The notes below the pieces were generated by a model that ran no database searches, was not told the origin of the DNA, and saw nothing but the letters and a program-made list of their open reading frames with translations. Both the position numbers and the translations under genes were made by a program. From positions 5,582 to 69,581 of the forward strand of contig CADAFS010000004.1 in assembly GCA_902787305.1 (NCBI GenBank): a DNA stretch of 64,000 nucleotides. The letters are read 5' to 3'. Shown here piece by piece: positions 1 through 64,000 of the stretch (position 1 is its first letter; every line of letters begins with the position of its first letter). The DNA is from an uncultured Pseudomonadota bacterium (GTDB lineage: Bacteria > Pseudomonadota > Alphaproteobacteria > Rs-D84).

Positions 1-24
1 TGATAAAACATATAGCGGTTTCAT
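1..24 (-). CDS. 5' end (8 codons) of an unidentified gene running off the left edge
   Basis: ATG at 24-22 on the minus strand, preceded by AGGAG (complement of 30-34) with a 5-nt spacer. The rest of the gene lies outside the window. Confidence 0.3.
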
Positions 25-83
25 TTTTTCTCCTTTTTTATAGCATTATAATTTTATTATAAATTGCGGTGTTTGACAACATT

Positions 84-761
84 TTATTCCCCCAACTTTG
101 CCATGAATTCGTCGTGGATTTTTTGTTCGGCATCTGGCACTGGGAATTGACGGTATGGAAAATTCGCACCAATTTTTGGGTGTTTCAAAAATGCCTCGTG
201 CTGTTTCGCGACAATTTCCGAAATTTCCGGCGCGGGCGCGGTGTTTTCAAGTTCCAAATAAACCTTGGCCAAAATTTCAGAGTCAATCAATGCCCCGTGC
301 GCATCGGCACGCGCGGTCAGTGATATTCCAAACCATTTTGCAAGTGCGTCCAGTGTATAACTTTTTGGCCCAAACACACGATTGCGCGCGATGACCAATG
401 TGTCCGCCATTTGCGAACGCGGAATCGGCGGCAAGTGCAACATTTCCAATTCGTGATTCACAAACGGAAAGTCAAAGTCCAATCCGTTATGCGCGACAAT
501 TGTTGAATCGCCAATAAATTCCAAGAACTTTGGCGCGACGACGGACATTTTCGGTTTGTCATCCAAAAACGCGTTTGAAATTTTATGAACCATATATGTT
601 TCCGGTGGAATAATTTTACCTTCGGGATTTATGTATTCGTGAAAAGTTTTATCGGTGATTTTTCCGTCTACGATTTCCACCGCGCCGATTTCGATGCAAC
701 GGTCGCCGCGCAAGTATTCGAATCCGGTCGTTTCAATATCAAAACAAATTACCCTTGCCAT
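84..761 (-). CDS. dnaQ: DNA polymerase III epsilon-type 3'-5' exonuclease
   Basis: 225-aa ORF with Exo I FDIETTG, Exo II HNGLDFDFPF and Exo III HGALIDSEILAKVY motifs. Confidence 0.85.
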   Translation of the reverse strand: MARVICFDIETTGFEYLRGDRCIEIGAVEIVDGKITDKTFHEYINPEGKIIPPETYMVHKISNAFLDDKPKMSVVAPKFLEFIGDSTIVAHNGLDFDFPFVNHELEMLHLPPIPRSQMADTLVIARNRVFGPKSYTLDALAKWFGISLTARADAHGALIDSEILAKVYLELENTAPAPEISEIVAKQHEAFLKHPKIGANFPYRQFPVPDAEQKIHDEFMAKLGE

Positions 762-807
762 AATTCCACCATAGTTTTATTATCCATAGGCCAATTATAA
801 TAAAACA

Positions 808-2889
808 ATGAATGTAAATCTAGAAAATCTTAACCCCGAACAAAAGAAAGCGGTCGAAACGACCGAAGGGCCGGTTTTGGTGCTGTCTGGGGCGGGCACG
901 GGAAAAACGCGCGTGCTGGTTATGCGGGTTGCGCACATATTAAATATGAATTTGGCGTTGCCGTGGCAAATTTTGGCGCTGACCTTTACGAACAAGGCCG
1001 CAAACGAAATGAAAAATCGCATCGCGGAAATTTTGAACGCGGGCGGCGGCAATTTTTATGCGCGCGATTTATGGTGCGGAACATTTCATTCAATATGTCT
1101 GCGTATTTTGCGGGCGAACGCCGCACGTGCGGGGTTAAGGCCGGATTTTATAATCTTTGGCGAAGATGACCAAAAGGCGGTTTTGAAAAACGTCTTTGCC
1201 GCGATGGGCGCGGACGCCAAGGAATACGATGCCGGCGATTGGGTCGAAAAAATTTCAAATATCAAAGACCGCGGAAATATCGAAAGTCCCGACATCGGTG
1301 CGCGCACGAAAAAAATCCTAAGTGATTACAATGCGGAATTGCGGCGCCAAGGTGCGGTCGATTTCGGCGATATTATTTTGCTGGTGCTGAAACTGTTTGA
1401 ATCTGCGCCGGATGTGCGCGAAAAATACGCGCGGCAATTCAAATACATTATGGTCGATGAATTCCAAGATACAAATAATGCGCAAATGCAGTTTATAAAA
1501 TTGCTAACGCGTGATGTGGAAAAACCTAATGTGTGTTGCGTGGGCGATGATGACCAATCGATTTATTCTTGGCGCGGGGCGGAAATAAAAAACATTTTGG
1601 AATTTGAAAAAAATTTCCCGGGCGCGCAAATCATACGCCTTGAAACAAATTACCGCAGTACCGGAAACATACTGGGGGCGGCGAATTCGTTGATACGGCA
1701 TAACAACGGGCGATTGGGCAAAGACCTGCGCCCGGCGGATGAAAAAAGTGTTGGTGAACCGGTCTATGTCCTAACGGTGCCATCAAATTATGACGAAGCA
1801 AAACTTATTGCCGACACAATTTTGCGGTATGCGAATGGCAATTATTCGAATTTTGCGGTTTTGATTCGCACGGGTTCGCTTTCGCGCGGATTCGAAGAAG
1901 AATTCGCAAATGCGCGTATTCCGTATCGGTTGATTGGAACAACCAAGTTCTATGACCGTATGGAAATTCGCGATGTTATCGCATATGTGCGTTTGTTGGT
2001 TCATGCGGAAGATGATGTTTCGTTCGCCCGCGTGATTGCGCGCCCGCGCCGCGGATTTGGTCCAACGGCGATTGCAAAAATGCGCGCGGCGGGCGGTTCA
2101 TTGATGGCCGGATTGCGCGCGGCAAATTTTGGGGGCAAGCAAGGAATCGCCGCCAATGAATTTTTATCTGTGTTTGATTTTGAATGGCAATCTATGCGGC
2201 CGGCGGACGCGGTGAAAAAATTACTTGAAGATGCAAAATATATGCAATACTGGCGCGAATCCAAAGACCCCGACGCCGAAGAAAGAATTTCAAACATTCG
2301 TGATTTAATTACAAATGTTATTTCAACATACGACAGTTTGCCGGATTTCTTGGAACACGCGGCATTGATGACAACCGATGATAACGATAATGAAATCGCC
2401 GATAATACCCAGGCGGTAAATATAATGACGATTCACGCCGCCAAAGGTTTGGAATTTGATACGGTGTTTTTGCCCGCATGGGAAGATGGAATTTTCCCAA
2501 ATGATAAATCAATCAAAGAAGGCGGAATGGAGGAAGAACGCCGCCTGGCCTATGTCGCGTTAACGCGGGCGCGGCGGCGTGCGATTATCACAAACACCAT
2601 GTCGCGTGTTATTTTCGGTGCGCGTCAATACTATTCGCCGGCGCGATTCATAACCGAAATGGATAATCGATATTTGGACTTTGGCGGACGCACGCCGCGC
2701 TATGAAACGCCGGCGCGGACAATGCAACCGAAAACGCATACGGTTAAAAGTATTGTTGGAAAATTGGTTGAACACGGCGAACTTGGGCGTGGTGTTGTTA
2801 TCGAATCAAACGGCGGAATTTTGACGGTTGCATTTAATCGCACAGGAATTAAAAAAGTTGCCGAAAGTTTTGTAAAAATTATCGATTAA
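808..2889 (+). CDS. UvrD/Rep/PcrA-family ATP-dependent DNA helicase
   Basis: 693-aa ORF with Walker A GAGTGKT, DEFQDT, TIHAAKGLEFD and YVALTRA helicase motifs. Confidence 0.9.
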   Translation: MNVNLENLNPEQKKAVETTEGPVLVLSGAGTGKTRVLVMRVAHILNMNLALPWQILALTFTNKAANEMKNRIAEILNAGGGNFYARDLWCGTFHSICLRILRANAARAGLRPDFIIFGEDDQKAVLKNVFAAMGADAKEYDAGDWVEKISNIKDRGNIESPDIGARTKKILSDYNAELRRQGAVDFGDIILLVLKLFESAPDVREKYARQFKYIMVDEFQDTNNAQMQFIKLLTRDVEKPNVCCVGDDDQSIYSWRGAEIKNILEFEKNFPGAQIIRLETNYRSTGNILGAANSLIRHNNGRLGKDLRPADEKSVGEPVYVLTVPSNYDEAKLIADTILRYANGNYSNFAVLIRTGSLSRGFEEEFANARIPYRLIGTTKFYDRMEIRDVIAYVRLLVHAEDDVSFARVIARPRRGFGPTAIAKMRAAGGSLMAGLRAANFGGKQGIAANEFLSVFDFEWQSMRPADAVKKLLEDAKYMQYWRESKDPDAEERISNIRDLITNVISTYDSLPDFLEHAALMTTDDNDNEIADNTQAVNIMTIHAAKGLEFDTVFLPAWEDGIFPNDKSIKEGGMEEERRLAYVALTRARRRAIITNTMSRVIFGARQYYSPARFITEMDNRYLDFGGRTPRYETPARTMQPKTHTVKSIVGKLVEHGELGRGVVIESNGGILTVAFNRTGIKKVAESFVKIID

Positions 2890-2894
2890 ATTTT

Positions 2895-4175
2895 TTATTT
2901 CTTTAACGCCTTGATAAATTCTTCGGCCTTTTTCTTGGTGTCGTTATACAGCGTTTTCAAATCTTTTTGCAGGTTTGTCCCGATTCCCGCATCAATTCCA
3001 CCACCAATTGATTTTGCAATTTCATCCGCATGCGTTGCGATATACGCAACCAACGCACCGGTCATAAGTAATGTGATAACATTGCCGTCCAATATAGAAA
3101 TAATATGCGTTTGCGTGTTTAATTGAACCGCACCACCAAGCAACGCGCCACCAATCGAAACAACAATCGCAAGTGCGACAAAATAAATCGCCGCATCAAT
3201 GAACTTTTTAACCTGGGACGAAAGACTCGATGTTTTGAATATGCCAAGGAACCCATTATATATATCGCCGGCGATACCTTTATACGATGTCTTTTGAACC
3301 GTTTCCGCAATCGCCGTAAATGGCAACAGTATGATAACAAGGAATAAATCCGCAATCACACCAAACGCAACAAATGCAAACTTAAATGCGGTATATATGA
3401 ACAAGACAACAAACACCAATCCCATTAAAAATGTAAATGTGCTGGTCCCCAATCCCGCGCCCATCATTTTCCAACCGAACTTTATCGCACCATAATAAAA
3501 CCCGGACATCCGCGTTGGCACACACATAATATCTGCGGCGGTTTTTGCATCAACAATCGATGTGTCTGTCATATGTGCCGCGGCATAATTTTGAATTGCG
3601 GCGCATGTGTCAGAAAGTTCAAAATTACCAATTTTCGCAACCGTATCCAAAATCAGATTCGCAACATACGAACCAAACGCAACAATTGGCCCCATAATCA
3701 TTCCAAACAATCGTGGCAATCCGATTCCCAAAATTATCAACCATATCGCAAGTGTGATACCTTTTTTTATTATATCTTCGACCGTTGGCATCGCTTTGAC
3801 TTTGGAATCTTTAATCATCCGGTACGCTTCGAACATAACCCAAAAAATGAAAGCAACAATTAAAAATATATTCACAAACCGTACCAACGAATCATCCAAA
3901 ATATGTGCCGTGTATGTCAATGCACTCATAAAAGATATCCCAAGTTTTGCCTCTATCGGAACACCGGTTTCAACATATTCGCGTTCGAATCCTGACTCAA
4001 AACCATCCAAATCATTTTGCACGGTTTGAATAAGTTCTTCGCGATTGTGTTCGGTTGTCCATGCACCGAAATCGCCAATGTCGCCGGTCACCAAATTAGA
4101 TTCCGCCGCCACCGCCACACCGCAAAAAGCGATACAAACAACAAACAATAAAAATTTTTTAATTATGTTTTTCAT
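2895..4175 (-). CDS. virB6: VirB6/TrbL-like polytopic membrane protein, paralogue 1
   Basis: Signal peptide, several long hydrophobic helices and the segment LLPFTAIAETVQKTSYKG, which resembles the TrbL/VirB6 core. ATGA overlap with the upstream paralogue. Family call is from pattern recall only. Confidence 0.55.
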   Translation of the reverse strand: MKNIIKKFLLFVVCIAFCGVAVAAESNLVTGDIGDFGAWTTEHNREELIQTVQNDLDGFESGFEREYVETGVPIEAKLGISFMSALTYTAHILDDSLVRFVNIFLIVAFIFWVMFEAYRMIKDSKVKAMPTVEDIIKKGITLAIWLIILGIGLPRLFGMIMGPIVAFGSYVANLILDTVAKIGNFELSDTCAAIQNYAAAHMTDTSIVDAKTAADIMCVPTRMSGFYYGAIKFGWKMMGAGLGTSTFTFLMGLVFVVLFIYTAFKFAFVAFGVIADLFLVIILLPFTAIAETVQKTSYKGIAGDIYNGFLGIFKTSSLSSQVKKFIDAAIYFVALAIVVSIGGALLGGAVQLNTQTHIISILDGNVITLLMTGALVAYIATHADEIAKSIGGGIDAGIGTNLQKDLKTLYNDTKKKAEEFIKALKK

Positions 4176-5629
4176 TTTTCCTTTATCAATTTATCCGCAA
4201 ATTCTTGTGGTTTTTTCCATGTCATTTTGACCAATTTTTTCAAATCTGTGCCAAAATTATCAACACCGCCGCCACTATCATCGGATTTTCCAAACGGTTC
4301 AAAAGACGGCACACTTGCAATAAGTTTATCAACACGTGGCGCCAAAACATAGAAATATATAAATATCAACCCCGCCATTAAAAGCAAAAATCCAAAACCG
4401 TCACGCATAAAATCAAATGCCCCCGGGTATCGTGATTCGATTTGTGCCTGATGCAAATTAAAGCAATTTTTGAATGCGTCTTTATCCACCGTGCCGTTTA
4501 TCGTTGCCGCCGATTCACATGTTGCGAAAACATTTCTTATGGACAACGCGGTGGTATCGGTTGGCATTACTTCACCAACCAACAATGGCGGGAATATCGC
4601 ACTATATTTATCCACCGGCCCGGGGAAAAATTCGTCGGCGGCAAAGAACACCATCGCGTAAACAATTACAACCTTTAATGATATTGCGACGACTTTTATC
4701 GCTGCTTCAATTAAAATGTCCACGGATTTCTTTACAACACCCGATGCCTTTTTCCATGTTTTTTCAAATGCCGCCGCCGCCGCAAGTAATGGTAAAAATA
4801 TCACAAGGAAAACAAGTTTGAATATCACCGACAAAATTTCAAAGAACAAATTGAATCCAATTACAACGAACATAATCACAACCAACAATCCCGCAATCCA
4901 TGTGAACGCGCCACCACCCAATCCCATCCACGCGTAATTCATCAGTGCGAATCCGCCCGCCGCGCCCGCAAGCATGACACTGTTGATATTTCCAACAATA
5001 CACATAAATGAATTTGAAACCGATGACATCGGATTATCAGCACCGATTTCCGCCGGCACGCATTGTGCGGAACTTGATATGCCCGTTGCCGCCATGGACA
5101 GTTCCGTTCCGACATACATCACCGGTTGAATCGTTATGTTTGATAATGCCTTTATTGATGATATACCACCCGTACCAAACGCACCGATAATTGCACCGAC
5201 AATCATAATGCGCACGCCGTTTTTCCAAACATCATCGAACCACGGACCGAACGCAAGTTTCTTTTCGCCCGTGTCCAATTTTGTTGTTTCCATCATCGCC
5301 TTGTAAATATATTTCGCACTGTGTATAAACAGGAAAACACCAAACCCAATCACCATTAAAATCCAAAGGTGCGAAACAATTGCATGCCAAAAAGATTCCG
5401 ACGCATCGCCCAGGACAAAGAACAAATCATTCACATATTTGCAAAGGAAACATCCATTTGTTGACGCAACATTTCCGTCCCCCGCACCAATTGAACGCAG
5501 GAATCCATCCATACTGGTGTACGTCAATGATGCCCCCGATAGCGATGAACTTACATACCAAATGCCAACACCCAACGCGATTGCGCCAAACAAGAAACGA
5601 ACAAGATACCCAAGGAATAATTTTTTCAT
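4172..5629 (-). CDS. virB6: VirB6/TrbL-like polytopic membrane protein, paralogue 2
   Basis: Polytopic protein with N-terminal CFLC motif and the segment FLPLLAAAAAFEKTWKK. Abuts paralogue 3 (stop 5630) and overlaps paralogue 1 by 4 nt. Confidence 0.55.
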   Translation of the reverse strand: MKKLFLGYLVRFLFGAIALGVGIWYVSSSLSGASLTYTSMDGFLRSIGAGDGNVASTNGCFLCKYVNDLFFVLGDASESFWHAIVSHLWILMVIGFGVFLFIHSAKYIYKAMMETTKLDTGEKKLAFGPWFDDVWKNGVRIMIVGAIIGAFGTGGISSIKALSNITIQPVMYVGTELSMAATGISSSAQCVPAEIGADNPMSSVSNSFMCIVGNINSVMLAGAAGGFALMNYAWMGLGGGAFTWIAGLLVVIMFVVIGFNLFFEILSVIFKLVFLVIFLPLLAAAAAFEKTWKKASGVVKKSVDILIEAAIKVVAISLKVVIVYAMVFFAADEFFPGPVDKYSAIFPPLLVGEVMPTDTTALSIRNVFATCESAATINGTVDKDAFKNCFNLHQAQIESRYPGAFDFMRDGFGFLLLMAGLIFIYFYVLAPRVDKLIASVPSFEPFGKSDDSGGGVDNFGTDLKKLVKMTWKKPQEFADKLIKEK

Positions 5630-60705: not shown

Positions 60706-61656
60706 TTACATATCAGGCCCGGCGGTAAATGTTCCGGTTCCGGCGTTTTCTTTAAATGTTCCGCTTACGGTATCATACATACCTAACACATCGTCGCTGT
60801 TACGACGCGCGGGGACAAGGTTTTGGACCAAGTTCCCATTTTCATTAATGCGCCATGAATATACATAACCTTCAAACCTAAAATATGCGTCGCCACCAAT
60901 CCATAACGGATTAGTGCCAGAAAAATCAGGAACATCACCATTGTATGAATATCCTGTATTATCAAACGTCACACCATTTCTGTTTTGAATAATTTTATGT
61001 TTCGTATTCAAAGAAGTTGTAAAAATGGTGCTTCGCCCGTTCATATTGGCGGTCCCGCCACTACCATTAATATTGTAATACATTCCATTAAAAGACGAAG
61101 TTGACCCCGATGTGCTGTATGCCATTTTACTGCCAGCTTTGGCCAACATTTCCATTTGTAGTTCTGTATTAGAAGACGGAAGAACTTCGGTATTAATCCA
61201 CTGGTTTCCTGTAAATTCAATGTATTCAAGATGTGTATAACCACTTGGTAACATATCCCCATACGCTGTTTGATCGACGATGGTCCACAGGGTGCAGGCC
61301 GGGCTGTTCGCGCATTCCAATTTTGTTGTTGGGGTTGTTGGTAAATTCGTAAATGTCGCATTTAACGCCGATGCGGTAATAAGTTTATCGCCGTCTGTGC
61401 TTGCATCATAATTGCTGATGTCCGAATACAGGCCGCGTTCACCAATTTGGCCATTTCCGGTCGCGGTATACGTCATTACCGTTTCACCCGCACCAACATT
61501 CGGTTGACCCGCCGCGGGGATTTTTAACTGCTTCGTTTCTATCTTCGTATCAACATACGCCTTTGATGCAACGGTTTTCATATCATCTTCGGCATGCGCA
61601 ACATTGGTTATCGCAGTAATCACAAATATCAATGCCAATAATATCTTTTTTAACAT
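60706..61656 (-). CDS. KAYVD-family exported fibre-like protein C with a globular C-terminal domain
   Basis: Signal peptide ...ITNVAHA, KTVASKAYVDTKIETKQLKIPAAG and neck CANSPACTLWTI. These are followed by LEYIEFTGNQWINT...LGMYDTVSGTFKENAGTGTFTAGP. Confidence 0.75.
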   Translation of the reverse strand: MLKKILLALIFVITAITNVAHAEDDMKTVASKAYVDTKIETKQLKIPAAGQPNVGAGETVMTYTATGNGQIGERGLYSDISNYDASTDGDKLITASALNATFTNLPTTPTTKLECANSPACTLWTIVDQTAYGDMLPSGYTHLEYIEFTGNQWINTEVLPSSNTELQMEMLAKAGSKMAYSTSGSTSSFNGMYYNINGSGGTANMNGRSTIFTTSLNTKHKIIQNRNGVTFDNTGYSYNGDVPDFSGTNPLWIGGDAYFRFEGYVYSWRINENGNLVQNLVPARRNSDDVLGMYDTVSGTFKENAGTGTFTAGPDM

Positions 61657-61697: not shown

Positions 61698-62147
61698 CTA
61701 ATTACTAGTCCCGGTATTACTGTTACTATTATTACCGTTGCTGTTTCTGCCATATACTTGTTGATCTTCAATGGTCCATAAACTGCATGTACCCGGATTC
61801 GCACAGGTCAATTTTGATGTTTCCATTGTGGGCAAGCTTGTGACACTGCCCTTTAATGCCGATGCGGTCACCAATTTATTTCCGTCCGTTCCCGCGGTAT
61901 AACTTGTTGGGTCACTGTATATCCCGCGTTCACCGATTGTTCCGTTTCCAGTTGTTGTATACATCACAACCGCCGTTCCGGCGTTCGCGCTGTTTGTTCC
62001 CGCGGCCGGGATTTTTTCTTGTCGTGTTTCAACCGATGTATCAACGTATGCCTTGGACGATACAGTCTTACGGTCGGTTGATGTCGTTTCCGCATACGCG
62101 GTGCCAATCATAACAATTCCGCACAACAATAAATTTCCGATTCGCAT
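61698..62147 (-). CDS. KAYVD-family exported fibre-like protein D (stalk and neck only, N/S tail)
   Basis: SD aaggagag; signal ...GTAYA, KTVSSKAYVDTSVETRQEKIPAAG, neck CANPGTCSLWTI. Ends in NSNGNNSNSNTGTSN. Confidence 0.7.
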   Translation of the reverse strand: MRIGNLLLCGIVMIGTAYAETTSTDRKTVSSKAYVDTSVETRQEKIPAAGTNSANAGTAVVMYTTTGNGTIGERGIYSDPTSYTAGTDGNKLVTASALKGSVTSLPTMETSKLTCANPGTCSLWTIEDQQVYGRNSNGNNSNSNTGTSN

Positions 62148-62532: not shown

Positions 62533-63234
62533 CTATTCCCGCCAAACTACATTTTCAAACATGGAATTTATTTCGTTGCGGATGGTATCATCGTTAAAAA
62601 ACGCGCCACGCATCGCGGGGGTTGTTTTATGTTCGTCGTCTTCAAAGTGTGGAATATATTTTTGCACCGCAAAGTTTTTAAATCCGCGCGCCGACACATC
62701 GCGCGCAATGTTCAATAAATCGTCCGTTGTCACATATCGTGGGTCACAGGTGATGCGAACCTCCGCATCCTTGCCCGTCTTTGCCCATACGTCCAAACTT
62801 TGCAGCAACCGGTCGTATGCGATATTTATTCCGGTCAATTTTTCGTAATTCGTTTTGGTTGCCTTGTAATCAATACCAATCCAATCAATCAAATCCGCGG
62901 CCGCCGCCAATCTTTCGGGATAAAATCCATTTGTGTGCAGGCCGATTGCAAACCCCAAATCGCGCACGCGTCGCATATAGTCGATTGTCGCGTCGCCCTG
63001 CATCAATGCTTCGCCACCGGAAAAAACAACGCCCTCTAACTTTCCAATGCGGGTACGCAGCCAATCAAAAACCTTGTCCGCATCGTATTCGCCGGGGGCG
63101 ACATCAATCAGATGCGGGTTGGAACAATACGCACAACGCAATGGGCAACCGACCAAGAACAAAACCGCCGCCAATTTACCCGGGAAATCAATCGTTGTGA
63201 ACGATACCAACCCGCCAATCTGAACAGTATTCAT
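62533..63234 (-). CDS. nrdG: anaerobic ribonucleotide reductase activating protein (radical SAM)
   Basis: Start at ATG 63234 (MNTVQIGGL), 3 nt after the preceding stop; CPLRCAYCSNP cluster. Confidence 0.85.
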   Translation of the reverse strand: MNTVQIGGLVSFTTIDFPGKLAAVLFLVGCPLRCAYCSNPHLIDVAPGEYDADKVFDWLRTRIGKLEGVVFSGGEALMQGDATIDYMRRVRDLGFAIGLHTNGFYPERLAAAADLIDWIGIDYKATKTNYEKLTGINIAYDRLLQSLDVWAKTGKDAEVRITCDPRYVTTDDLLNIARDVSARGFKNFAVQKYIPHFEDDEHKTTPAMRGAFFNDDTIRNEINSMFENVVWRE

Positions 63235-63236
63235 TT

Positions 63237-63422
63237 TTACGCGGCCTTTTTCATCAATTCGGCGTGCCGTGCGCCGGTCGTCAAACAGTTGCATTCGGTG
63301 AACGTCTTGCGTTCGCAGAATTCAGAATATTTCCCGATGTTGAAATTTTTTGTCGGGCGAATAAATCCCATGCTGCGTGAAAATACTTCGCAAGGTGTTC
63401 TTTGTTGTTGGTTAGCAATCAT
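63237..63422 (-). CDS. stand-alone glycyl-radical segment of anaerobic ribonucleotide reductase
   Basis: 61-aa ORF with its own SD (aaaggagag). EVFSRSMGFIRPTKNFNIGKYSEFCERK matches the NrdD C-terminal RxxGYxxP..(F/W)NxGKxxExxxR glycyl-radical motif. Confidence 0.7.
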   Translation of the reverse strand: MIANQQQRTPCEVFSRSMGFIRPTKNFNIGKYSEFCERKTFTECNCLTTGARHAELMKKAA

Positions 63423-63467
63423 GTTTCTCTCCTTTCTTTTTTTATATTGCTTTTTTGGTTCTTGTTT

Positions 63468-64000
63468 TTATGCCTTGTTTGACACTTCATCTGGCGTTAT
63501 GCCAAGTTCGGCGTCGCACTTTGGGCAAAATTCATGCCGGCCTGGCAAATACCCGTGCTTTGGACATATTGAAAATGTCGGGGTAAGTGTCATGTACGGA
63601 ATCTTGTAGTTTTCGAATATCGTGCGGACGATTTTCTGGGCCGCTTCACCACTGGATACCGGTTCGCCCATATAAAGGTGCAACATTGTGCCACCGGTAT
63701 ATTTACGTTGCAATTCTTCCTGGTGTTCCAATGCGACAAACGGGTCGTCGGTAAAGTTCACCGGCAATTGCGTTGAATTCGTGTAATACGGTGCATCACG
63801 CGTGCCGGCGGTGATGATATCCGGGAAATTTTTAACATCGGTTTTTGCAAAGCGATACGAACAACCTTCGGCCGGCGTTGCCTCTAAGTTATAAAGGTTG
63901 CCGGTTTCTTCTTGGAACTTTACAAGTTTTTCACGCATAAAGTCCATTAGGTCCAACACAAGTTTTTTGCCGTACGGGGTTGCGATGTTTTCCTTGCCAT
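63468..64000 (-). CDS. nrdD: anaerobic ribonucleoside-triphosphate reductase large chain, C-terminal part (5' end outside the window)
   Basis: YNLEATPAEG..., HLYMGE and the Zn-ribbon-like ICPKHGYLPGRHEFCPKC. The ORF is open to the window edge and stops at 63468, before the glycyl-radical motif. Confidence 0.8.
   Translation of the reverse strand, partial: GKENIATPYGKKLVLDLMDFMREKLVKFQEETGNLYNLEATPAEGCSYRFAKTDVKNFPDIITAGTRDAPYYTNSTQLPVNFTDDPFVALEHQEELQRKYTGGTMLHLYMGEPVSSGEAAQKIVRTIFENYKIPYMTLTPTFSICPKHGYLPGRHEFCPKCDAELGITPDEVSNKA

Follow-up and report, generated by a model that had tools for sequence, protein, structure and literature searches.

Introduction

Class III ribonucleotide reductases (RNRs), and glycyl-radical enzymes generally, are described as having the radical on the catalytic polypeptide, and the NrdD enzymes that have been solved or characterised are all single-chain. 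Crona et al. (2015, PMC4520616) named NrdJ as the one RNR of cellular organisms that is split, and according to a 2026 review small radical-loop proteins are known only for the formate-lyases (PMC13450708). The Zn site of T. maritima NrdD has the form CxxxHx6CxxC and lies between the last barrel strand and the glycyl-radical loop (PMC4493059), and Burnim et al. (bioRxiv 10.1101/2022.04.23.489257) connect a double-cysteine motif, MCCR, with the T. maritima-type subclass. The subject of the present analysis is an nrdD/nrdG locus at the end of a 64,000-nucleotide (nt) stretch of contig CADAFS010000004.1 (positions 5,582 to 69,581; assembly GCA_902787305.1), hereafter the window, in which the glycyl-radical segment is encoded by a separate open reading frame (ORF) of 61 amino acids (aa) placed between the two genes. 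The operon nrdD-large / small ORF / nrdG is best explained, with a probability that we put at about 85%, as encoding a naturally split, two-chain class III RNR.

The two pieces of NrdD

The window belongs to Candidatus Enterousia, an uncultured gut and rumen alphaproteobacterium, whose loci (L017–L021) matched it at 86–94% identity in a species survey covering one genome per GTDB species and the 80 best loci. The three genes follow one another on the minus strand in the order nrdD, small ORF, nrdG, and an earlier note on this DNA had claimed from this arrangement that the class III RNR is split and that its glycyl-radical segment is translated from an ORF of its own; every coordinate in it was correct, including the TAA at 63468-70, the 45-nt gap, the spacing of the ribosome-binding site and the 2 nt that precede nrdG, and the claim itself agrees with the profiles, the reading frames, the selection and the relatives described below.

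The edge of the window (64000) cuts nrdD so that the last 176 residues of the large chain are inside it; this frame reads ...FSICPKHGYLPGRHEFCPKCDAELGITPDEVSNKA (in a longer reading ...TPTFSICPKHGYLPGRHEFCPKCDAELGITPDEVSNKA) and terminates as ...CPKCDAELGITPDEVSNKA at TAA 63470-63468, 15 residues past the Zn-ribbon. The spacer contains a Shine–Dalgarno (SD) sequence, AAAGGAGAG (63435-63427), whose GGAG core ends 6 nt 5′ of the ATG (63422-63420) of the small ORF, and two poly-A runs (63456-63451 and 63443-63437) whose length differs between strains; no promoter-like or terminator-like site was found in it. The small ORF ends with TAA 63239-63237, 2 nt before the nrdG ATG at 63234, and its glycyl-radical loop is SRSMG19F, the codon of the putative radical glycine G19 being 63368-63366 and a conserved cysteine, C11, lying 8 residues upstream of it.

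The two ORFs match successive segments of the same profiles. Pfam NRDD (562 positions) is matched from 378 to 528 by the large fragment and from 532 to 562 by the small ORF, and NCBIfam NF006126 (684 positions) from 488 to 653 and from 649 to 682, respectively; what the two ORFs encode is therefore a single NrdD in two successive pieces. As the glycyl-radical loop resides not on the NrdD polypeptide but on the separate 61-aa ORF, the locus is filed as a variant of the NrdD family. Neither Pfam nor NCBIfam has a model dedicated to the small chain, and in the small ORF PF01228, the Gly_radical family of the pyruvate formate-lyase (PFL) type, found no match, the weak NRDD match being the only one. 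Proteobacterial small chains score above the Pfam NRDD threshold (30–36 bits) by matching the last 30 positions of the profile; the Enterousia small chain remains below it with 20.7 bits, which fits its being unnamed or “hypothetical”. Against the PDB sequences a profile built on the small-chain family gave no match at E ≤ 10, the piece being too short and divergent, and tblastn with a proteobacterial small chain gave no match in 50,697 phage records. The product of nrdG, on the other side of the small ORF, matches TIGR02495 (NrdG2) at 2.3e-51 and 173.9 bits, the cut-off being 131.15.

The complete large chain, available from strains L001–L008 (with the same junction in L007 and L008), is 680 aa long, consists of ATP-cone and NRDD domains and matches the NrdDs in the PDB. 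Outside the window itself, the L007 sequence, whose junction is identical, displays the finger loop VRSMCCRLRLD with the MCCR double cysteine; the T. maritima-type MCCR subclass also includes the thioredoxin-dependent N. bacilliformis enzyme. C145, H148, C158 and C161 of the Zn-ribbon are invariant in alignment A2 and align to the Zn site of T. maritima NrdD. A Zn site to which Cys11 of the small chain also contributes would seem superfluous, the large chain already possessing a complete C/H/C/C set that matches T. maritima.

Independent translation and conservation of the small chain

In the window nrdD and the small ORF share one reading frame, interrupted by a single TAA, a circumstance absent from the earlier note, and read-through therefore had to be tested. 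The dedicated SD had been taken to argue against a sequencing error; although there is indeed no error, the SD alone is a weak argument because the ORFs are in frame here, and the decisive evidence for the split is the variation of the frame among strains and species. An identical 61-aa ORF is present on at least 21 contigs from independent assemblies (ENA, NCBI, Logan), always between a 680-aa nrdD and nrdG. In eight loci (L001–L008) the spacer measures 43, 44, 45 or 46 nt, by way of the two variable poly-A runs, and since the protein is identical the small ORF occurs in all three frames relative to nrdD, L006–L008 being again in frame. Elsewhere in the genus, among its more distant members, the spacer measures 26–58 nt.

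The same lack of a fixed relation is seen across species. In 62 split loci scored automatically for frame, stop, start, SD and spacer, the relative frames 0, 1 and 2 are found 24, 20 and 18 times, and nrdD ends with TGA in 30 cases, TAA in 26 and TAG in 6; the small ORF (45–78 aa, median 61) starts with ATG in 60 of the 62, is preceded by an SD in 50 and lies 4–298 nt (median 37) from nrdD, nrdG being the next gene in 57. Eight further loci have a small-ORF start that overlaps the nrdD stop.

Homologous small ORFs number 317, and the best 120 of these are all short (56–92 aa). Twenty-seven columns are invariant among 28 sequences of the family; among them are R8, T9, C11, the loop F14-SRSMG19, F27-N28-x-G30-K31 and E37-R38, as well as a C-terminal extension, G50-x-R52-H53...L56-x-K58-x-A60-A61. 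The median pairwise ratio of non-synonymous to synonymous substitution rates (dN/dS) is 0.079, with synonymous sites saturated. Homologues, dN/dS and conserved synteny place the small ORF far beyond chance.

Transcripts point in the same direction. A contig from a rumen metatranscriptome (run X2), 99% identical to the window, covers 63227-63585, so that the beginning of nrdG, the whole small ORF, the spacer and part of nrdD are on it, with the TAA kept; others among the metatranscriptome contigs include the small ORF together with the first part of nrdG, and one RNA contig displays a 2-nt deletion in the poly-A spacer, at 63437. In keeping with the split that had been proposed, the stop is retained in independent assemblies and in RNA contigs, and both pieces are under purifying selection. 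The gene structure, the independent initiation, the co-transcription, the purifying selection, the wide conservation and the homology to parts of fused NrdDs are thus established here.

Distribution of the split form

Checking the relatives, as had been suggested, revealed that the split is not peculiar to this genome: 72 of the 80 species-representative loci have a large nrdD and a separate small ORF, mostly followed directly by nrdG. Their large chains end 9–40 residues after CPxC, except for one with a 105-residue tail, and their small ORFs carry ...(E)RQ(R/P)CEVWTRVMGYHRPV..FN.GK..EH.ER.... The remaining eight comprise five fused genes, two loci cut by a contig end and L084, to which we return below. 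The earlier statement that known NrdD proteins have the radical motif on the same polypeptide is therefore valid for those characterised biochemically or structurally, but not for this large clade.

The split form is maintained across Alpha-, Beta-, Gamma- and Epsilonproteobacteria and is found also in phyla of the candidate phyla radiation (CPR), in Bdellovibrionales and in Omnitrophota. Cultured carriers include Pseudomonas brassicacearum, P. rubra, P. silensiensis, Campylobacter concisus, Caulobacter segnis and Acidithiobacillus ferrianus, together with Allochromatium, Marichromatium, Janthinobacterium, Duganella, Hydrogenophaga, Ottowia, Castellaniella and Alloalcanivorax; the PA1920 product of P. 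aeruginosa PAO1, presumably of some 675 aa, would fit the split type as well. When representatives at 50% identity were searched with the 176-aa NrdD query, many of the closest ended 7–25 residues after CPxCD[AE]E without a Gly motif, and some of the close relatives end in a third type of tail, CPYPHTEE.... A small ORF of the Pseudomonas type has 1624 relatives, the best 120 of which are all 48–91 aa long. In RefSeq the small ORFs are named “anaerobic ribonucleoside-triphosphate reductase”, “oxidoreductase” or “hypothetical protein”.

Plasmids and megaplasmids account for 162 records with the small ORF, mostly from Ralstonia and often with the ORF unannotated, and the split occurs on megaplasmids of Ralstonia, Cupriavidus and Azospira. 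On Azospira pAZI09 and on pHG1 of C. necator H16 the three genes are annotated as “ribonucleoside triphosphate reductase” (679 and 676 aa), “nrdD” (59 and 66 aa) and activase. The nrdD/nrdG locus of pHG1, a system that has been studied genetically, is thus of the split type, and PMC2864759, citing Siedow 1999, reports it to be indispensable for denitrifying growth under anaerobic conditions, except when B12 lets NrdJ replace it; this growth requirement supports the split-type system in vivo.

Two further arrangements deserve mention. On pAZI09, a conjugative IncP plasmid, nrdA, nrdD-large, the small ORF, nrdG and nrdB form one block beside an integrase (L097, Azospira sp. I09, 1-4995), a mobile cassette with both aerobic and anaerobic RNR, and in Sulfuricurvum (L087) the small ORF (4156-4332) lies ~1.1 kb downstream of nrdD in a different gene order.

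Fused relatives and the position of the break

The 120 best relatives of the fused NrdD of L068, an Obscuribacterales metagenome-assembled genome (MAG), comprise 47 fused and 73 split forms. In the fused relatives, CPxC-(linker)-CEVWTRVMGYHRPV..FN.GK..E..ER corresponds in order to the end of the large chain followed by the small chain, and the linkers vary from 11 residues (CPQCGEECEVWTRVMGY) up to 55. The long linkers retain the motif of the large-chain tail, CD.E[IL]+A.K.., and that of the small-chain head, L.D.ERQ.CEVW, joined by variable sequence of low complexity. In a neighbour-joining tree built on the last 165 residues of the large chain, unrooted and approximate so that no direction is claimed, one bipartition groups 78 of the 79 truncated-type loci (72 confirmed split, plus a few with a small ORF that could not be assessed) with seven fused sequences, the Falkowbacteria locus L085 (EVYSRITGY type) lying outside this group. 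Fused and split forms are interleaved, and there must therefore have been more than one split, or re-fusions.

The AlphaFold2 model of a long-linker fused relative (overall predicted local distance difference test score, pLDDT, 78; template modelling score up to 0.71 against solved NrdDs) presents, in this order, the strands of the Zn-ribbon, a confident helix (664-678) corresponding to the CD.E... tail, a coil, and the Gly hairpin with the helix next to it, the latter two at a pLDDT of ~85. The coil, with a pLDDT of 56 in the 680-690 block, coincides exactly with the split point, and the model thus places the break in a disordered surface linker between Zn-ribbon and radical loop. Modelled alone, the small chain folds poorly (pLDDT 52), a hint that it may not fold by itself, as expected if it needs a partner.

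Some other properties of the relatives may be recorded here. A fused NrdD of a Chlamydiae MAG (P0521) has the Gly-loop segment tandemly duplicated at its C-terminus (IPDKDRQECEGWTRVMGYL IPDKDRQECEVWTRVMGYFRP), and many close NrdD relatives (P0128, P0136, P0149, P0162, P0175, P0207, P0234, P0241 and others) are 1000–1900 aa long, probably through inteins or other insertions. Cysteine pairs (CxxC, CC, CxC) recur, depending on the lineage, at the extreme C-terminus of large, small or fused chains, as in the small chain of the window (E-C-N-C, 63273-63281) and in L018, L020, L021, L033, L039, L052, L061, L063, L070 and L081 as well as P0122, P0507 and P0534; the pair is not conserved within Enterousia. 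Together with the MCCR loop these pairs suggest a flexible redox-shuttle tail like that of class I and class II RNRs.

Alternative explanations

Had the TAA been read through or bypassed by programmed recoding, a single full-length NrdD would be made and no separate small protein would exist. Such a mechanism could draw on the in-frame position of the small ORF behind a single TAA, in the window and in L006–L008, and on the natural occurrence of fused relatives with long linkers, but it is hardly tenable in view of the 61-aa protein that stays identical while its frame relative to nrdD changes within one species, of the evenly spread frames, three stop codons, 4–298-nt spacers and occasional overlapping starts across species, of the ATG that the small ORF nearly always has together, mostly, with an SD, and of the 2-nt spacer indel in an RNA contig. 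Read-through by selenocysteine at the relatives ending in TGA was likewise discarded, the frames being variable and the other two stop codons, TAA and TAG, occurring as well. If nrdD were dying after a recent nonsense mutation, or if the stop had arisen by a sequencing or assembly error, a single in-frame stop of the kind expected from a point mutation would be seen, as it is in the window; yet such an explanation can practically be dismissed, for the same ORF and stop recur on the at least 21 independent contigs, 317 related small ORFs exist, 72 of the 80 species loci are split, dN/dS is 0.079, RNA contigs keep the stop, and the large chain is intact over its 680 aa, MCCR finger loop included.

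A different question is whether the small protein is a constitutive subunit or merely rescues NrdD cleaved by oxygen. The earlier note had likened it to GrcA/YfiD, the spare part of PFL (PMC13450708), and the likeness holds insofar as a stand-alone mini-protein bearing a radical loop is encoded beside an activase gene and would act in trans. It fails at the spare-part function, which we consider very unlikely: the large chain, ending shortly past the Zn-ribbon as do the equally truncated large chains of all split relatives, has no radical loop of its own, so that there is nothing for the small chain to be spare for, and PF01228 does not match it. The small chain would accordingly count as an obligate subunit because the large chain has no radical loop. 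A last alternative bears only on why the split exists and is compatible with the two-chain enzyme, namely that the break is selectively neutral, having occurred in a tolerant surface linker and left two tightly binding chains with no further consequence. To this we would give somewhat less than even odds: the linkers of fused relatives are highly variable (11–55 residues) at exactly the split point, the modelled linker is a low-confidence coil and fused and split forms are interleaved in the tree, but the split form is the predominant one and is stably kept in four proteobacterial classes, CPR and other groups, and both new termini have conserved motifs (the CD.E..A.K tail and the L.D.ERQ.CEVW head).

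A probable two-chain class III RNR

In the two-chain enzyme that we favor, the 680-aa large chain has ATP-cone and catalytic barrel, the latter with its MCCR finger loop, followed by the Zn-ribbon and a short tail, and the 61-aa small chain, initiated at its own SD and ATG, would be the glycyl-radical loop of NrdD. NrdG would abstract the Cα hydrogen of Gly19 in the small chain, which would fill the barrel slot occupied by the C-terminal loop in single-chain NrdDs (T4, T. maritima), and the glycyl radical would generate a thiyl radical on the finger loop for the reduction of ribonucleoside triphosphates. This mechanism appears the likeliest, given that the Zn-ribbon is complete on the large chain and that the small chain corresponds colinearly to the radical loop of the fused enzymes.

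Several points weigh against this picture. The location of the radical on the small chain, the non-covalent assembly and the activity are inferred only, by homology; the active-site checks come from near-identical strains (L007), the window having only 176 residues of the large chain; and the Gly loop of Enterousia is RSMGF, unlike the commoner RVMGY or RVVGY. The RNA evidence consists of assembled metatranscriptome contigs, in which DNA carry-over is possible. Finally, in L084, a Holosporaceae MAG (271-2319), a truncated-type nrdD ending in CDAEIIERKKREIFIQQKS is followed by a membrane transporter, and neither a small ORF nor nrdG was found within 2.4 kb of it; either the partner genes are elsewhere or the system is decaying in this endosymbiont.

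The split may have been kept either as a neutral break in a linker that tolerates it or because the small chain is a radical carrier that is cheap and can be replaced. The latter idea can be developed, though we regard it as rather doubtful, into that of an exchangeable, disposable radical cartridge, which NrdG would activate off the enzyme and which would then dock into the large chain. If this were true, no buried loop would have to be pulled out of the barrel for activation, and O2 would cleave only a 6–7-kDa peptide, which would be replaced while the 77-kDa catalytic chain is reused; the arrangement would be for class III what the separate radical subunit is for class I RNR and would explain the predominance of the split form in bacteria that often meet oxygen, such as Pseudomonas, Cupriavidus, Ralstonia, Campylobacter, Caulobacter and gut-wall Alphaproteobacteria. 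Indeed, split systems are common in facultative and microaerophilic bacteria, a pattern that fits a replaceable carrier and is confounded by phylogeny.

Other features of the locus

The coordinates of the locus are collected in Table 1.

Table 1. Elements of the split nrdD/nrdG operon, in positions of the window
Feature	Position	Strand	Basis or remark
nrdD-large, 3′ part (catalytic chain, class III RNR)	63468..64000	-	PF13597 5e-53; NF006126 7e-82
Zn-ribbon C-x2-H-x9-C-x2-C (ICPKHGYLPGRHEFCPKC)	63516..63566	-	Whole motif on large chain
A-rich intergenic spacer, 45 nt	63423..63467	-	SD and two poly-A runs
Small chain of split NrdD, 61 aa, MIANQQQRTPCEVFSRSMGFIRPTKNFNIGKYSEFCERKTFTECNCLTTGARHAELMKKAA	63237..63422	-	Profile matches, conservation, dN/dS
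nrdG, radical-SAM (S-adenosylmethionine) activase, 233 aa	62533..63234	-	TIGR02495, Pfam Radical_SAM, Fer4_12

A 253-aa ORF (62533-63294, minus strand, start at 63294) represents nrdG extended upstream into the small ORF, and gene callers have chosen this form in several strains; the extension is probably spurious, the NrdG2 profile starting at residue 6 of the 233-aa form. We presume that a similar over-extension might explain the 30.9-kDa NrdG of A. eutrophus. The region downstream of nrdG varies between strains L001–L008. In the window it encodes two adjacent paralogous proteins with signal peptides (60706-61656 and 61698-62147, both on the minus strand), which share an N-terminal module of ~110 aa with the motif KAYVDT..KIPAAG..TGNG.IGERG.YSD..DG.KL.TASAL..LPT..KL.CAN..C.LWTI.DQ..YG.

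Significance

No split, bipartite or two-subunit class III RNR or NrdD was found in the searchable full text, an earlier mention in subscription papers being possible; as far as can be searched, the small ORF, deposited in databases under generic names, has apparently not been recognised as a separate radical-bearing subunit. Yet a large clade that includes tractable model bacteria would, instead of placing the radical on the catalytic polypeptide, place it on a separate chain of ~60 residues, offering a natural system for studying how activases reach a buried glycine and whether radical loops are exchangeable, and bearing on how far anaerobic DNA synthesis tolerates oxygen in facultative bacteria and in pathogens. 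There are practical consequences as well. Annotations often overlook the small ORF, label it “hypothetical” or absorb it into an nrdG extended too far upstream, and the large chain would be taken for an NrdD without a radical site; in heterologous expression, nrdD and nrdG cloned without the small ORF should give a dead enzyme.

Comparison with known systems

The closest relatives are the single-chain NrdD enzymes with their NrdG (E. coli, phage T4, T. maritima, P. copri, S. thermophilus), which belong to the same family (PF13597, NF006126). With the NrdD2/MCCR type the present system shares the ATP-cone, the MCCR loop, the Cys/His Zn-ribbon, the Gly loop and an adjoining activase of the NrdG2 type; it differs in that the radical loop is on an independently translated 61-aa protein, the large chain ending after the Zn-ribbon, and in that the small chain has a conserved C-terminal extension of 19 residues.

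Split class II NrdJa/NrdJb (Pseudomonas aeruginosa and other Proteobacteria; PMC4520616) is likewise encoded by two adjacent genes of one operon, both presumably needed, in overlapping taxa (Proteobacteria). However, that enzyme depends on adenosylcobalamin and its break separates the barrel from a C-terminal Zn-finger/IscU-like redox domain rather than from the radical element; as all profile and structure matches obtained here are to class III NrdD, the resemblance to NrdJ is organisational only. GrcA/YfiD is similar in being a small stand-alone protein with a glycyl-radical loop and a cognate activase that brings the radical to a large barrel in trans, but it belongs to the PFL-type Gly_radical family, and serves, only after cleavage by O2, as a spare for a PFL with a loop of its own, whereas the small chain described here is the sole radical loop and is of the NrdD type. 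With class I RNR (NrdA and NrdB), finally, the logic of a catalytic chain and a separate radical chain is shared without homology, the class I radical chain being a ferritin-like metallo-subunit with long-range radical transfer, unrelated to the small chain.
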